Below are positions 809 to 10,707 of a stretch of DNA of 27,624 bases, piece by piece. The stretch lies in the IMG/VR virus record IMGVR_UViG_2565956708_000008; one strand, written 5' to 3'. This DNA comes from a virus. Taxonomy: Duplodnaviria > Heunggongvirae > Uroviricota > Caudoviricetes. Position 1 is the stretch's first letter; each line of letters opens with the position of its first letter. The notes below the pieces were generated by a model that was not told the DNA's origin, did no database searches, and saw nothing but the letters and a program-made list of their open reading frames with translations. The translations under genes were made by a program, and so were the position numbers.

Positions 809-1633
<825 letters not shown>

Positions 1634-1742
1634 TCAATTGACAACTTATAATCCCTACTAGTTAGCATTATGATTTCCAGAGTGAGGAATATAAAAATCT
1701 CTGTTTCTGGCACATAACAGCCCTTAAGATCGTAGCTCGCCA

Positions 1743-1789
1743 TCATGGGGTGTCGGGGGGCGGAGGTTCAAATCCTCTCGTGCCGACCA
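1743..1789 (+). other. 3' fragment of tRNA-Pro (T-arm, acceptor 3' strand, CCA); probable att core repeat, not a complete tRNA gene
   Basis: TCATGGGGTGTCGGGGGGCGGAGGTTCAAATCCTCTCGTGCCGACCA matches the 3' ~47 nt of enterobacterial tRNA-Pro(GGG) as I recall it, with one mismatch. The 30 nt upstream do not match the tRNA 5' half. Confidence 0.6.
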
Positions 1790-1803
1790 AAAATCCCTTA
1801 AGA

Positions 1804-1829
1804 ACCAGCCTATTATGGCTGGTTTTTTT
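1804..1829 (+). terminator. rho-independent terminator directly after the tRNA-Pro fragment
   Basis: Stem ACCAGCC / GGCTGGT with loop TATTAT, followed by a run of seven T. Confidence 0.65.
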
Positions 1830-1969
1830 ATGATTGTTTTTTATGCGGAGAAATACCGGGGAATAATTGGGGTAAAACACCTTTAGGCTATTCACTTAGC
1901 CTACCACCATCAAAATCTTTCCGAATGTATCCATCTCTTTTTTCTTATGCAGCTAAAACGAAGTCTTGA

Positions 1970-2017
1970 TACTGTTTATTTACACAGATAAGAATAATAC
2001 TGTCTACAAACGCAGTA
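1970..2017. promoter_or_regulatory. two tandem LexA (SOS) boxes upstream of the DinI-like gene
   Basis: Box 1 at 1970..1989 is TACTGTTTATTTACACAGAT (CTGT-N8-ACAG). Box 2 at 1998..2017 is TACTGTCTACAAACGCAGTA (CTGT-N8-GCAG, one mismatch). Confidence 0.55.
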
Positions 2018-2030
2018 CAAAAGAAGTGTT

Positions 2031-2209
2031 ATGCGTATTGAGATCTCCATAGCCAAAGACAAAATGACCAAATGCCAAACGGCGCTGTGGACGCGTTAAA
2101 GGAAGAATTAACCCAACACATTGGCAAGCGTTATGACGATGTGGAGATGATCGTAAAAGCCACCAGCAACGATAGTTTTTCAGTTAGACATACTGCAGAT
2201 AAAGATTGA
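2031..2209 (+). pseudogene. DinI-like protein, frameshifted
   Basis: Frame 1 gives [14 protein letters not shown] then a stop. The next frame continues (M)[44 protein letters not shown]. Together these align to DinI (MRIEVTIAKTSPLPAGAIDALAGEL...) as I remember it. The shift lies near 2066..2074. Confidence 0.5.
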
Positions 2210-2573
2210 GCTAAAACTTTCGTTCAGGAAACTCTGAATGATACCTGAGAGTCTACTGAAGAGTTGTTTGTTCACTAGTTAGCACGTAGGAAATCATTCA
2301 ATACTCGCACTATCGGAAGTTCACCAGCCAGTCGTAGCACGTCCTTGCAAACGACGTGCCTACGGTTTCAATCACCTCTCACCATCAATTCTATCAATAA
2401 TAATTAAACAGCGCCTAGACAAAATAAATAACAACAAGTCAACAACCTCGACAGGATGCCGATGGGATGATGAAGAGATAAGAAAGAATAACCAGTAAAG
2501 CCCTAAAACGTCAGCGTTCAGACGCGTTTTTTACTTAATCGGTAACAAATACGTTGTATCATAGCAAAATAAA

Positions 2574-4523
2574 ATGATTGTTCTAAATCAGATTAACTCC
2601 TCACTTTTGTACAATGTCGCTTACAGGTATACCATGAAATCCGAGACGCTAACTGTCCAACAACTTTTTCAAGACCGCCGACAATACTGTGTTCCATTCT
2701 ATCAACGTGCCTATGTATGGACTCAGCAAGACCAGTGGTCAGCTCTACTGGAGGATATCCTAGAGAAAGTACAATCCCGGCTCTCGGGTACAAAACCAAC
2801 TCCCCATTTCCTTGGTGCGGTTGTACTGGAACCTCAATCAAAAAAAGGATTATTAGGTGTAGATTCCATACATATTATTGATGGTCAGCAACGATTGACC
2901 ACTCTTCAATATGTTCTGGCATCCATCCGATTAGCATTACGTGCTACGGATCTTTCCAGCTTAGAGGCTCTCATTTCGCCTTGCCTGAAAAACTCAAACG
3001 AAGACACAATGCGAAATAAAGAAGTAGAACGCTTCAAACTGTGGCCAACTTTTCGGGATCAAACTCATTTTATTCAAAGTTTTAATGTTGAAAATATTGA
3101 CGATCTCCGGGACGTATTCTCTGATAGTTTCACGCAGCATGGTACGTTGCGTAAGCATTTTAATCACCCGCCATCACTAGAAGCATTATGTTTTTTTACT
3201 GAAGCCTTTATAAAATGGATTAAAATAGAAAACCACTCACCACAAGAAAATGCTGTAGCTCTAATTGAGGCTGTCTTAACAGATCTGAAACTGGTAAGCA
3301 TATTTCTCGAAGCTGAAGATGATGCCCAAATAATTTTTGAAACATTAAATGGGCGAGGGGCGGAACTTCATGCTACGGATCTTATTCGCAACTATATCTT
3401 TATGTGCGCTGAGCATGAAAATATTAATGCTATTGAATTATATGAAAATGAGTGGAAGAGCTTTGAAGATAAATACTGGTCGGAAAAACAACGCCGTGGA
3501 CGTATTAATAAACCACGCATGGAGTGGCTAGTACATGCGACATTGCAATCAGAAAGGCAACGTGAAATTGATCTGTCTCGCCTTTACAATGAGTATCGTG
3601 ATTATGTAAGTAAGGACTTGTCTTCACAACGAGCAGATCTGCAAGTAAAGCGCCTCAAACAATATGCATCACAATATAAAGAATTGGTTGATGGTTTTGG
3701 CACAACCCCCATCTCACACTTTGGATATCGCATCGCAGACTATGATGTGACGACACTTTATCCGCTTGCTTTGTTCATTTCGATAGCTAACATCGCTGAT
3801 GATGAGAAAGCAGCCATGTATAATGATCTTGTCTCCTACGTAGTACGAAGAGCCGTATGTGGCCTGACGCCAAAGAATTACAACAATGTATTTATGAATG
3901 TATTGCGGCACTTGGCTAAAACGGAAATTTCCAGTGTTGAGTTACGTAATATCCTCAATAACTTAAATGGCGAAGCCTCACGTTGGCCTGGTGACTCAGA
4001 ATTTCTCAACGCTTGCATCAATGCTCCACTTTATCCTGGCAGGCTCGACGCACCGAAAATGCGCTCAATGTTAACGGAACTTGAAAGAGAACTTTGTCGC
4101 CAAGTAAAGACAGAAAAGCCTGATGTTCCAAATCTTTCTAATCTCGATATCGATCATCTTATGCCTCAAAGTTGGTATTCCTGTTGGCCTCTCGAAAATG
4201 GTCGTATGGTGACAAATTCAGATGCTACGGTATTGAACCAAATTGTTCTGTCTGGAACCGATCTTACCCCTGAACAGCTACTGGTAAGGAAACGGCAACA
4301 AGCGATATCTACTTTGGGAAATCTAACTTTGCTTAACCTTAGCGTAAACCGTTCTGTTCAGAATGCTGTATTTCTGAAAAAACGTGATGCTCTCATCGTC
4401 CACACCAATCTACGACTGAACATTCCACTTATAGTTAAGGATAAATGGGATGAGGATGAAATCCTGGAGCGGGGTAAAAAGTTGGGGGAAATTGCATTGA
4501 AAGTATGGCCAAAACACGATTAA
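2574..4523 (+). CDS. GmrSD-like type IV restriction / defence protein (N-terminal DUF262 domain, C-terminal DUF1524 His-Me finger nuclease domain)
   Basis: N-terminal FYQRAYVWT and IIDGQQRLTTLQYVL (DGQQR signature of DUF262). C-terminal DIDHLMPQSW with downstream LGNLTLLNLSVNRSVQN. The start is more likely the internal ATG at 2634 (MKSETLTVQQLF...), which has an AGG 9 nt upstream. Confidence 0.8.
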   Translation: MIVLNQINSSLLYNVAYRYTMKSETLTVQQLFQDRRQYCVPFYQRAYVWTQQDQWSALLEDILEKVQSRLSGTKPTPHFLGAVVLEPQSKKGLLGVDSIHIIDGQQRLTTLQYVLASIRLALRATDLSSLEALISPCLKNSNEDTMRNKEVERFKLWPTFRDQTHFIQSFNVENIDDLRDVFSDSFTQHGTLRKHFNHPPSLEALCFFTEAFIKWIKIENHSPQENAVALIEAVLTDLKLVSIFLEAEDDAQIIFETLNGRGAELHATDLIRNYIFMCAEHENINAIELYENEWKSFEDKYWSEKQRRGRINKPRMEWLVHATLQSERQREIDLSRLYNEYRDYVSKDLSSQRADLQVKRLKQYASQYKELVDGFGTTPISHFGYRIADYDVTTLYPLALFISIANIADDEKAAMYNDLVSYVVRRAVCGLTPKNYNNVFMNVLRHLAKTEISSVELRNILNNLNGEASRWPGDSEFLNACINAPLYPGRLDAPKMRSMLTELERELCRQVKTEKPDVPNLSNLDIDHLMPQSWYSCWPLENGRMVTNSDATVLNQIVLSGTDLTPEQLLVRKRQQAISTLGNLTLLNLSVNRSVQNAVFLKKRDALIVHTNLRLNIPLIVKDKWDEDEILERGKKLGEIALKVWPKHD

Positions 4524-4547
4524 TGCAATTAATAAAATGATTATAGT

Positions 4548-4567
4548 GGCCTTACATTAGTAAGGCC
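4548..4567 (+). terminator. hairpin downstream of the GmrSD-like gene, possible terminator
   Basis: Stem GGCCTTAC / GTAAGGCC with loop ATTA; no clear T-run follows, so this is weak. Confidence 0.3.
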
Positions 4568-5644
4568 GCTACTCACTATTAAATACTTTAATTTGCATCA
4601 AGAACAGCAGTGTCAGCCCTAGGTCTCGGACTTTGTACCGCTTATCTTGTCTTCAAAAATCAGCTCGCATCCTGCACAGTTCAGCGCATTACGTTGTAGA
4701 TCTGTGTTCTGGTCATTTGTTGACACACGTACATAGCCAATAAGCATGGTAGATCTCCCTGACAAAAGCAGGAATGATGCCATTTGCTCGTTATTTCTGC
4801 ATTTTCATAAACGTTGGTTTGGGAGAAGGGGCAGCATGGCCTGTTGGTGAGGCTGAACAACAACCTCCAGACACGTCGCCCTCAAGCGGTCCTGGATGCA
4901 ACGGTAATGTTGTTATTGCTGAAGCTGACGCGGTACTGACACAGGTTGATACGGCAAATATATGCCCCGCATTACGTGTTAAGGGAATTCGTGGCAATGA
5001 TGATGCGCTCAGCGTTTCTAAAAAGTCTGATATGCCGTCAGCAAAAGAGCCATTTGTAGTTCCTATTTATGTGCTGGTAGCTATCATCCCGGTATCTTTG
5101 ACCGCTTAAGGTGGTGAATCTAGCGATACAGCAGGTTCTGGCTCGACCACTGTTAGCATTTCTGCCACTGTCGGTGGTAACAAGACCGTGGCGTGTACAG
5201 TGGCCGATACACTGATCGATACCTTTCCTTCAGACATCGCCTTTAACTCGATCGTGAGAGCAGGATAATGGATAACGCAGTATTAAATAGTGGCGTAAGT
5301 ACAAGTATTTCACTGCATAAAATGTTTTCTGAATATGATGGTGCAACAAGGGTTCATGTTGCCACTATAAGAGAATCTCGTGCCACTGGTGAGGGATTTC
5401 CGGCATTGCCTCCTCAGGGGAAACAAGTTGTACCTAAGGGTTCTGAACCTATATGATGGACTAATAATCCAACTCCTTCAAAATAGGTGGAAGAGCAGAG
5501 GGCTGAAATGAACTAAAAAACTTTAGCGTCAGAATCAAAAAACATCACCAAAACCCATGAGTACCCCGGCAATACAACCACTAGTCCCCTAATAAGCGAA
5601 TAACTTACGTAGGATGATTCGTGGCTGGAGTATCAGGCCGAAGT

Positions 5645-5916
5645 GCAGCAGAGCGACACTGTCTGTGCGGCAGAAGTACAGCGTCCGTCGCTTATTGATG
5701 CTCCGGTCAGATGCAATGCTCTGCTTTAGCGGAAATTGTTGGCGTGACCGCGGCAATGGCATGCAGAAAAGAGCTAACTCAACTCTTTTCTGCCTGCAAC
5801 TGATGCGGTCAGGGCAACAATTACAACTGAAGCGGAGGGAGGGATCTGACCGCAACTTCAAGCAGCGTATGACGCTCTATTTCTGCCGCACATGCTGTGT
5901 CGACATGCTCTGCTGC
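5645..5916. repeat. long imperfect palindrome of about 270 bp, two roughly 75 percent complementary arms around a perfect central hairpin
   Basis: GCAGCAGAGC at 5645..5654 is the reverse complement of 5907..5916, and the arms share blocks such as TGTGCGGCAGAA and GGTCAGAT. The central hairpin at 5763..5793 is GCAGAAAAGAG, loop CTAACTCAA, then CTCTTTTCTGC. Confidence 0.6.
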
Positions 5917-6287
5917 GTCCTGAGACACCAACTACGAATTATACTATGCAACGTCTTCGCTTTTTAGGCGAACAGTAGCTGTTTTTTCGGGCCACTGATC
6001 CGTTTTTGTGAATTTATTGAATTCTGAAACTACAGTGATTTTTACGATTTCACCCGTAAGCACCGCCACATCTTTCGAAGGAGGTAAGTTAACAGACCGT
6101 CAGGGACGTCAACCACCCTCAGCTCCAACTGCTGCCCCTAGTGGGTAAAAAGCCAGAAATCCATCACATGCTTCTATGTTTACATCAATAATGTCAACAG
6201 GAAGCCTTCTCGCACCATCATAGTCTTGAAACATTATTTGCAGAGCATATGTTTTAATACGTCGACAAATTAATACTGAGTTCACTA

Positions 6288-6485
6288 TTACCGTGCAATG
6301 ACGAAATATTTAACTGCAGTGTTTCGTGGAAGGGTTTCGATGAGGTGTTTGTCGACTTTACCCAACATGGAATGATTCTTACCGTCGGCAACAAAAATGC
6401 AACCCGCGGTCGCGTAAATCCCTGTTGAATTACTGAATATAGCACCATAGCCGCTCGTTGATCCCAAAAGGATAGCGCCCAGCAC
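6288..6485 (-). pseudogene. tail fibre distal segment, in frame with the upstream tail fibre gene but separated from it by an amber codon
   Basis: Same frame as 6486..7031 and continues immediately after TAG at 6486..6488; encodes GSTSGYGAIFSNSTGIYATAG, typical Gly/Ser/Thr-rich fibre sequence. Confidence 0.4.
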
Positions 6486-7031
6486 CTAAATAGTACCTAC
6501 AGAGGGCAATTTTGTTGAGAGCATATAAGACTTATAATCACCGCCGCTGGCATCAGCCCAACCAGTCATTCCATCCACCGGTAATTGACCCCATATATTT
6601 GCAGGAACAGTCTGAGCCATTTGCGCGTCAGGTTGACCAATCAAAACATCTCCGTTGCCTTTCGTCAACGTTGATAACGACGTGGCAGAGATTCGTGTTT
6701 CCGGCACGCCCACAGTTCGTTTTGCGGCTTCTCCCAAACCAAGGTTTTCGAGAGCCGTTTTCACCGTGCCGTCCGATTTGATATCGCTAAACGGATTCTT
6801 GCGGCTTAACAGCAGCGCACGAAGCGCGGTAAGCAGCTGGTCGTGCCGCGCCTTCTCCAGACTGGCACCGGATGCCTCCACCACGCTGCAGAGTTCTTCC
6901 TGCAACATGTCAAAGTAGTCATCATCCAGATCGGTGGCAGGCGTGCCTGTCTGGGGGTTACCACGGGTAAAACCGTTCTTACCCGCGCCGAACTTATCCT
7001 TCTGCGCGGTTTTCGTGTCTATACGATGCAT
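6486..7031 (-). CDS. tail fibre protein, N-terminal (constant) part; apparently truncated by an in-frame TAG
   Basis: Position directly after the baseplate genes; Mu S / e14 StfP-like N-terminus ([21 protein letters not shown]...) by recollection. Confidence 0.6.
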
Positions 7032-7034
7032 GGA

Positions 7035-7619
7035 TTACTCCGGATATTTAAAAATTACGTAGGTATGCGAAGGGCAGAGTTTGTTAAGCACACATTCGAC
7101 GACGGTGTCGCCCCAGATACGCAGCGCGGAATCACAGGGATCGCCACATGTCATCCAGGTGCTGTTGGTGGCGGCTGGCATGTTGACCTGCCAGTAATAC
7201 CGCCATTCCGGCGCATTCACCGCGTCAGTACAGGCCGATGAGCAGGTGAACGTGCTTTTGTCGTATCGCGTGATGGTGGCGTCTGGTCTGCCCAGGGCAG
7301 CAAGCTGTGCAAGGTAAAAATCCTCATTGATGCCGCCCGCCAGGTTAACCTTCGCATCCAGTCGTTGCTGACGCTGGCGAAGGGTCTGTGTTCCTGCGGG
7401 AATACATTCATCCGGCAGGCCGCACAGACGCTCCCAGCGATTTATCAGTTCGGTGGTGGTGCGCGGATCCAGCTCCCGCATCAGGGCATCCGCACGCTGA
7501 TGAACGCGGGTTAATGACTGTGCCGCACCGGCAATCGCCGGATCGCTGGCTGACCACGCCGGACCGGGCGGCAGCAGTGCCGACAACAGACGGATGTAAT
7601 CATCGTTTGTCACGCCCAT
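7035..7619 (-). CDS. tail protein, Mu gp48 / YmfQ-like (DUF2313)
   Basis: 194 aa, the same length as e14 YmfQ; sits between the baseplate J-like gene and the tail fibre gene. Confidence 0.55.
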
Positions 7620-9628: not shown

Positions 9629-10707
9629 CAGAACGGGTCCTCCTGTACTCTGGCTTTTTTCTTTTTCCGCGCGCCGGGGGCTTCGGGTTCAGGCAGATAA
9701 GCATCAGGTGGGCCGACACGGATTTCCGTCAGGGTGCCGTTCTGGTCCTGAGTAAACGTGACTTCCGAGACAAGCAGTTCGGTATTGTCGAAACCACAGA
9801 CCGGATCGAAGACAATCACCCGCTGGTTGGGCTGCCACAGCGTACCGTTACCCTGTCGCCAGCCCTGCACCACATAGGTGGTTTCATCCGTCCGCGCCGC
9901 CCGTTGTCGGGCTTCAAAGTCAGCACGCGCAATACAGCCTGCCCCCGTAGCCTGCCCTGTCTGCCTGATATACATCGGACGGTAACGGGCAATAAATGCG
10001 TCCTCTGTGCGGGCCCGCAGCGCGCTGGTGGTGGCCTCACCGAAATCATCGTCGTTTCCAGCACGCTGCCCCGCCACCTGGTAAACAGAAAACCGCTCCC
10101 GGATACTCTTCTCCGTATCGCAGGAAAGGATGTTTTCCCCGAGTACCAGCGCAGTATGTGCCCGCGTTGAGCCAATACCGCCAATCACCAGCCTGCCGTG
10201 TGGGTCGTCGTAAGCCAGTGCCTGCTGCTGACCGAGTATTTTGTTGATTACCTCAATCACCGTTTCACCGTGATCGGGCTGGACGTCAGGAATAACACCC
10301 GACGGCGCACCGTTGTTCACCACCTCAATGCCGAAAGGCGCAGCAAGCGCCTGCGCAATCTGTACCAGCGATCGTCCGTTAAACTGTGTCGGTTCGGCTG
10401 CACAGTCAATCAGGTCAGCGGTCAGACTGCGTCCGGCAATACCGGTGCTGACCGAACGGGCATCGTAACGAACGGGCGTCGCCTCCACCCAGCCGGTGAT
10501 CACCAGCTCATCACCAATCAGCACCTCCACTTTTGAACCGTTTTTAATGCGCGGCTGAAGCGTGGTGATACCCTCATCACCCGGCCACTGGCGGGTGATC
10601 TCCACACTGAAATCCCGCGCCAGCCGTTCAATACCGGCACCGATGCGCACCGATGTCCAGCCATTCCACTCCCGGCCATTTACCCGTAGCGTGACGTTAT
10701 CGTTCAT
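9628..10707 (-). CDS. tail protein, Mu gpP-like / P2 gpD-like
   Basis: 359 aa, directly downstream of the Mu N-like gene and upstream of the baseplate genes. Confidence 0.6.
   Translation of the reverse strand: MNDNVTLRVNGREWNGWTSVRIGAGIERLARDFSVEITRQWPGDEGITTLQPRIKNGSKVEVLIGDELVITGWVEATPVRYDARSVSTGIAGRSLTADLIDCAAEPTQFNGRSLVQIAQALAAPFGIEVVNNGAPSGVIPDVQPDHGETVIEVINKILGQQQALAYDDPHGRLVIGGIGSTRAHTALVLGENILSCDTEKSIRERFSVYQVAGQRAGNDDDFGEATTSALRARTEDAFIARYRPMYIRQTGQATGAGCIARADFEARQRAARTDETTYVVQGWRQGNGTLWQPNQRVIVFDPVCGFDNTELLVSEVTFTQDQNGTLTEIRVGPPDAYLPEPEAPGARKKKKARVQEDPF

Follow-up and report, generated by a model that had tools for sequence, protein, structure and literature searches.

Does the DinI-like reading frame near one end of an E. 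coli prophage encode a working protein, is it the remnant of a decaying accessory gene, or has a sequencing error merely made an intact gene look broken? The question is raised by the IMG/VR virus record IMGVR_UViG_2565956708_000008, whose 27,624 nucleotides were analysed at full length and are referred to here as the window. The answer is that the locus is an already annotated dead copy of a phage-borne gene for the RecA modulator DinI, which has retained two LexA sites. It is a feature of a known kind: the pseudogene is flagged in RefSeq, and LexA-controlled prophage dinI genes are documented for Gifsy-1/2/3 of Salmonella. The features on which this answer is based are listed in Table 1.

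Table 1. Features of the dinI module and its flanks, in window coordinates (HI, heterology index).
Feature	Position	Strand	Basis and details
3' 58 nt of tRNA-Pro (proL), attachment-site remnant marking the prophage end	1732..1789	+	54/58 identical to the full tRNA-Pro in locus L002
Intrinsic terminator after the tRNA fragment, predicted to insulate the dinI promoter from upstream transcription	1800..1827	+	11-bp stem, T-run; -16.8 kcal/mol, z -5.8
Sigma-70 promoter-like site	1966..1995	+	Promoter scan: -35 TTGATA at 1966-1971, 18-nt spacer, -10 AAGAAT at 1990-1995
LexA box 1, TACTGTTTATTTACACAGAT	1970..1989		Within the -35/-10 spacer; HI 6.72, top matrix score in the window
LexA box 2, TACTGTCTACAAACGCAGTA, degraded	1998..2017		Covers the presumed start of transcription; HI 9.64, ranked second among the 20-mers of the window
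DinI-like pseudogene, ancestral ORF of 82 codons	2031..2280	+	Alignment to intact 82-aa homologues, Pfam DinI match, RefSeq annotation
1-bp deletion (A4 to A3), frameshift	2070..2072	+	Alignment to intact alleles
Nonsense codon TGA, codon 60 (TCA, Ser, in intact copies)	2207..2209	+	Private C to G at 2208
Nonsense codon TGA (TGG, Trp73, in all homologues)	2246..2248	+	Private G to A at 2248
dinI terminator hairpin, retained	2332..2365	+	-15.2 kcal/mol, z -3.6, then GGUUUCAAUC
GmrSD-family (DUF262/DUF1524) type IV restriction gene, outside the dinI module	2574..4523	+	Pfam GmrSD_N 118 bits, GmrSD_C 72.6 bits

Membership in the DinI family is evident from profile and structure comparisons. Against the Pfam profile PF06183, which has a cut-off of 24.2 bits, the conceptually repaired protein scores 37.8 bits, the fragment of 45 amino acids alone 31.9 bits and an intact homologue 67.7 bits. 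The score of the repaired translation confirms a proposal of the first-pass annotation, namely that two reading frames jointly align to DinI: frame 1 from the ATG at 2031 and the subsequent frame 3 (the +2 frame) both do so. Over its full length, the intact homologue can be aligned with E. coli DinI (PDB 1GHH; E 2.9e-12), and this homology suggests that the intact proteins bind RecA filaments.

The lesions of the reading frame were mapped by aligning the window to intact copies from the O157:H7 prophage at ssrA, a dusA prophage and phage mEp460. Intact alleles read GACTAAAATGCC where the window has GACC-AAATGCC at 2067-2075, and the alignment to the prophage dinI homologues thus places the frameshift, which had been suspected in an A-rich run near 2066..2074, at a single deleted base within codon 14. 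Inactivation had been ascribed to this frameshift, which was indeed found; however, the gene carries three disabling lesions, as the two TGA codons further downstream had been overlooked, and a second conserved tryptophan is lost by a G to T exchange at 2265 (Trp79->Leu, W79L). The interval first marked out also ended at 2209, but the remnant runs through both nonsense codons to the ancestral stop codon at 2278-2280. An uninterrupted ORF of around 80 amino acids containing the C-terminal helix and the W..SAD.WF motif is absent. Because of the frameshift at codon 14, the TGA codons at positions 60 and 73 and the Trp79->Leu exchange, the locus is, judged by its sequence, a pseudogene of the DinI family and not a functional member. 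Between 2115 and 2278, 22 substitutions are private to the window, and their distribution over the three codon positions is 5:6:11. The pairwise dN/dS between the window and intact alleles is 0.22-0.25, compared to 0.03-0.13 among the intact copies.

Expression of such a gene could in principle persist, either through programmed frameshifting or in the form of a truncated peptide of 45 amino acids starting from an ATG at 2072. This start codon directly follows the shift, the short ORF matches the Pfam DinI family by itself, and some frameshifted relatives retain an otherwise intact 3' half. In the window, however, the C-terminal helix is lost to the two TGA codons in frame, a Shine-Dalgarno sequence is absent before 2072 and degraded before 2031, and the substitutions are spread over all codon positions, all of which argues strongly against continued expression and makes it highly improbable. 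The C-terminal helix is reportedly the negatively charged, DNA-mimicking part of DinI that contacts RecA (Voloshin et al. 2001, as cited in PMC3121763).

A homopolymer error introduced during sequencing or assembly would leave the gene truly intact, and an indel within an A-run lies at a typical site for such errors. Yet the identical sequence is present in 17 independently assembled strains among the matches listed, and 173 records are at least 99% identical. IMG/VR contigs and diverged sub-alleles share the same deletion, and two further nonsense codons as well as the loss of a conserved tryptophan are due to substitutions. Sequencing error is therefore excluded, because many independent assemblies show the same lesions, two of which arose by substitution; with next to no probability left, this explanation is refuted. 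The first-pass annotation had left the choice between a decaying prophage accessory gene and a sequencing error. The former holds, and the latter is contradicted by the identical independent genomes and by the stop codons of the substitution type.

The allele is widespread. A query of 1,001 bp around the dinI locus is 100% identical in 20 complete E. coli records among the matches listed, which correspond to 17 strains, as UTI89 is counted four times; these strains include UTI89, APEC O1, S88, IHE3034, NU14 and the type strain ATCC 11775. At a threshold of at least 99% identity, the same query matches 117 records, while the 331-bp core matches the 173 records mentioned above; the allele is also present in IMG/VR contigs. 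In RefSeq, the UTI89 locus (corresponding to 2031-2248 of the window) bears the annotation 'DinI-like family protein; frameshifted; internal stop'. The window stems from a close relative of UTI89 and not from UTI89 itself: the dinI region is identical in both, and the remainder is essentially identical except for positions 1-95, positions 4834-6727 and a 1-bp offset beyond about 24.6 kb. Neither of the two divergent segments has a megablast match in UTI89 on either strand, and they show 30-44% mismatches at the same offset. Segment 4834-6727 contains a cassette for a tail-fibre C-terminus and an assembly protein that adjoins the dead invertase described below. Since this segment differs from UTI89, alternative host-range cassettes seem to be present among strains; inverted repeats were searched for around the tail-fibre segment (4400-7600), and none were found.

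What remains of the regulatory region? The tandem LexA boxes postulated upstream of the DinI-like ORF are the two best matrix matches of the window. They had been placed 15-60 bp upstream, and their exact distances from the ATG at 2031 are 44-59 bp and 16-31 bp, within the sequence cTTGATACTGTTTATTTACACAGATAAGAATAATACTGTCTACAAACGCAGTA at 1966-2017. In the 27.6-kb window, the motif CTGT-N8-RCAG occurs at 1972-1987, where it is palindromic and thus present on both strands, at 2000-2015 and in one further match at 10005. Each box matches the LexA consensus TACTG(TA)5CAGTA (PMC6590174) at 15 of 20 positions. For scoring, a heterology-index (HI) matrix was derived from an unverified list of 30 E. 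coli LexA sites, reportedly those of Fernandez de Henestrosa et al. 2000. The index was used for ranking, chance expectation and the comparison of alleles only, as its absolute values appear to lie below published ones and are not comparable to them. Among all 55,210 20-mers on both strands, box 1 ranks first (6.72) and box 2 second (9.64), and the best unrelated 20-mer in the window has an HI of 13.85. The number of sites expected by chance per window is 0.005 at HI <= 6.72 and 0.07 at HI <= 9.64, given as the mean over 200 simulated 27.6-kb sequences that match the window in length and dinucleotide composition. The two boxes differ in quality. Box 1 has an exact CTGT-N8-ACAG core, and its HI lies within the range of the training sites of the matrix (1.3-9.8). 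Matrix scoring is less favourable for box 2 despite its rank: its core is CTGT-N8-GCAG and its HI lies at the weak end of the known sites. Intact alleles carry ACAG in this position, in TACTGTATACAAACACAGTA or near variants, with HI values of 3.3-4.9. At box 1, intact alleles reach HI values of 3.5-5.6, and the CTGT/ACAG arms are invariant across the homologues.

The promoter module is well conserved among relatives. In seven homologues, the farthest of which has about 69% identity over the locus, the CTGT/CAG arms of both boxes are almost invariant, and in the -35 hexamer CTTGA is invariant and the fifth base is C or T. Both boxes are also near-invariant across 103 copies of the promoter module, which were collected by an IMG/VR pattern scan and from fetched loci, and the equivalent site of phage mEp460 carries a promoter annotation. 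The -10 region of the window allele has a private A to G exchange. With box 2 at the weak end of the range and this private change in the -10 region, the promoter may be weak or just partly repressed.

An intact ORF of 82 amino acids is found in 78 of the 103 promoter-module copies, in which box 1 and box 2 have the HI values given above for intact alleles. In contrast, the ORF is broken in 17 of 17 copies that share the promoter allele of the window (14 records, the window itself and two UTI89 loci). The A to C and A to G exchanges in box 2 are found only in this frameshifted allele, and the Shine-Dalgarno sequence is changed from GAGGG to AAGAA. Three other alleles are independently broken, with ORFs of 28, 42 and 72 amino acids; about one fifth of the sampled phage dinI cassette copies are pseudogenes, which trace back to at least four separate lesions. 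Different records combine the frameshifted 5' half with differing 3' halves. In loci L002 and L103, the downstream part resembles that of intact copies, and the 3' half seems to be intact and selectively constrained (dN/dS 0.08-0.11). The varied 3' halves are interpreted as a probable result of recombination among prophage copies.

Decay extends to the 3' end of the module. The retained terminator hairpin of the window is weaker than that of the intact O157 copy (-19.0 kcal/mol, followed by UUUUUCUUU), the U-tract is shortened to UUU exactly where the homology to other dinI cassettes breaks, and a stretch of 15 nt 3' of the stop codon is deleted. By comparison with the 78 intact copies, the module is thus decayed as a whole, since box 2, the -10 region, the Shine-Dalgarno sequence and the U-tract of the terminator are all degraded. 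The 3' UTR of prophage dinI (around 100 nt; 2281-2365 in the window and 4316-4425 in locus L003) is highly conserved among otherwise mosaic prophages. In light of the DinR precedent from Klebsiella, a small RNA derived from the 3' end is conceivable where copies are intact.

Damage at the terminator raises the question of whether the orphaned LexA promoter has been kept for another purpose, either to drive read-through into the downstream GmrSD gene or to produce a regulatory RNA from the 3' end, such as DinR of Klebsiella. The scan for promoters and terminators revealed no strong plus-strand terminator from 2017 to the start of GmrSD, and the dinI terminator lacks a full U-tract. A candidate second terminator hairpin at 2505-2535 was rejected, as it is insignificant (-4.6 kcal/mol, z -0.06). 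In addition, the 3' end of a dinI mRNA has been described as a functional sRNA (PMC10907235). On the other hand, a cassette of GmrSD, pin and tail-fibre genes is located at the e14 site (icd) in locus L009 without any dinI, and GmrSD also occurs without the dinI promoter elsewhere. GmrSD must therefore have its own promoter and is independent of that of dinI, and its assignment to a dinI operon was rejected as the main reading. Furthermore, box 2, the -10 region and the 3' UTR, with its 15-nt deletion and the loss of the U-tract, are degraded and not conserved in the window allele, and the segment 2275-2575 folds with no excess structure (z -0.14). Retention of the promoter for either purpose is therefore improbable, although slightly less so than continued expression of the protein. 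It is likewise unlikely, if a little less remote, that GmrSD is partly SOS-inducible through the orphaned promoter and the terminator without its U-tract, or that the RNA of the dead gene has been retained as a non-coding, SOS-induced transcript. The favoured reading of the locus remains that of a dead module.

The position of the module is typical of its kind. At prophage ends, intact cassettes directly follow ssrA, a dusA-type integrase or proL, and in phage mEp460 dinI lies between int and the convergently oriented side tail-fibre gene stf. In the window, the tRNA-Pro fragment has no similarity to tRNA-Pro to the left of 1732. ARAGORN detected no tRNA and Rfam at gathering thresholds no match in the window; a permissive Rfam scan of 1500-2700 resulted in sub-threshold chance matches and a weak tRNA match of 15.5 bits, which reflects the tRNA-Pro fragment. 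In UTI89, the whole island of approximately 43 kb is situated between ssrA and a duplicate of around 180 bp of the ssrA 3' end and the sequence downstream of it (518-697 versus 43641-43814 in locus L005). The presence of a tRNA-Pro fragment inside an ssrA-flanked island suggests that the island is composite or that recombination brought in the prophage end from a proL-integrating phage. Between ssrA and this end lies an islet of three genes, one of which encodes a LEM-3-like protein of 268 amino acids with a GIY-YIG domain (809-1615, minus strand; Pfam PF22945, 48.4 bits).

On the other side of the module, the GmrSD gene starts at about 2634 according to RefSeq. It is followed by the N-terminal stub of a Pin/Hin-type invertase, which comprises 54 amino acids and is encoded on the minus strand at 4619-4783. 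Since the cassette of GmrSD and the stub (2574-4783) is found again at icd and further prophage ends (L009-L011), the tail-fibre end seems to offer a slot for defence genes; the cassette presumably occupies the place where e14 carries mcrA. Genes for tail, head, terminase and lysis proteins are located further downstream. By the UTI89 annotation, the tail genes are similar to their e14 counterparts (ymfQ, tfaE, baseplate J/gp47).

The closest known counterparts are the dinI-like genes of lambdoid phages, such as mEp460 gp21 and those of phage cdtI, Stx-converting phages and O157 prophages (WP_001217542.1), which form the same cassette with a DNA identity of 82-86%. They likewise possess the promoter, both LexA boxes, an ORF of 82 codons, the terminator and a position at the att or tail-fibre end; in contrast to these, the copy of the window is frameshifted, contains two nonsense codons and has a weaker operator, -10 region, ribosome-binding site and terminator. 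The Salmonella prophages Gifsy-1/2/3 also carry a DinI-family gene with a box near the ATG and a terminator upstream, and their copies are directly LexA-repressed and damage-induced (PMC3121763, PMC8072944). The LexA box of these homologues is found 19 bp from the ATG, and nalidixic acid leads to a 4.6-23-fold induction (PMC8072944). Gifsy dinI heads a LexA-controlled operon together with an antirepressor gene (gfoA/gftA) and irsA (PMC3121763). While Gifsy has one annotated box and an operon with an antirepressor, the window has two boxes and a dead gene, and no antirepressor ORF follows: no plus-strand ORF of more than 20 amino acids that could correspond to a Gifsy-like antirepressor or irsA is present between 2280 and the GmrSD gene. 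According to the UTI89 annotation, the prophage has a gene for a LexA-family (CI-type) repressor.

More distant relatives differ further. Chromosomal DinI of E. coli (PDB 1GHH) has the same family and length, and the intact prophage homologue aligns with residues 1-81 including the WxSADxWF motif. Chromosomal dinI is also regulated by LexA, but it occupies a non-prophage locus and is a distant relative, as the alignment is gapped and its E value is the one given above. Coliphage 186, with Tum, and the phages PSP3 and Fels-2, with split tum/dinI genes, likewise have LexA-controlled genes that include a DinI-like portion (PMC3121763). However, Tum is a fusion protein of 146 amino acids with antirepressor activity from P2-like phages, and there is no sign of an antirepressor domain in the window. 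For the DinR sRNA of Klebsiella pneumoniae, the transcript of an SOS-induced dinI has a 3' end that can function independently of the protein (PMC10907235). The seed of DinR lies in a Klebsiella-specific 3' UTR of chromosomal dinI, whereas the 3' UTR of the window is damaged, and the parallel is one of precedent, not of homology or of complementarity to ftsZ.

Taken together, the locus is very probably the dead remnant of a self-contained, LexA-repressed dinI cassette, whose residual transcript would be controlled by LexA but untranslatable. The intact cassette is carried by lambdoid coliphages beside the attachment site. At its promoter, LexA dimers at two sites, within the -35/-10 spacer and across the start of transcription, would block RNA polymerase. 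Upon DNA damage, the RecA-stimulated cleavage of LexA would lead to a burst of the DinI-like protein of 82 amino acids, which, by homology, would bind RecA filaments. While the features of the sequence are observed, binding by LexA, induction by the SOS response and a role in RecA binding are extrapolated from homologues and from the Gifsy prophages. The promoter of the window, together with box 1, probably continues to yield some LexA-controlled RNA that cannot be translated. Damage-inducible transcription is thus plausible, but it is probably weaker and leakier than that of intact copies, because box 2, the -10 region, the ribosome-binding site and the terminator are degraded, and it cannot yield DinI.

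The significance of the locus is small, as it is a routine prophage pseudogene that is already flagged by RefSeq. If read-through into GmrSD were to occur, a defence gene would thereby have been wired, by accident, into the DNA damage response. The locus is nevertheless a clean example of a regulatory cassette whose operator, -10 region, ribosome-binding site, reading frame and terminator decay together. Furthermore, the finding that around one fifth of the copies are broken suggests that phage dinI is readily dispensable to lysogens.
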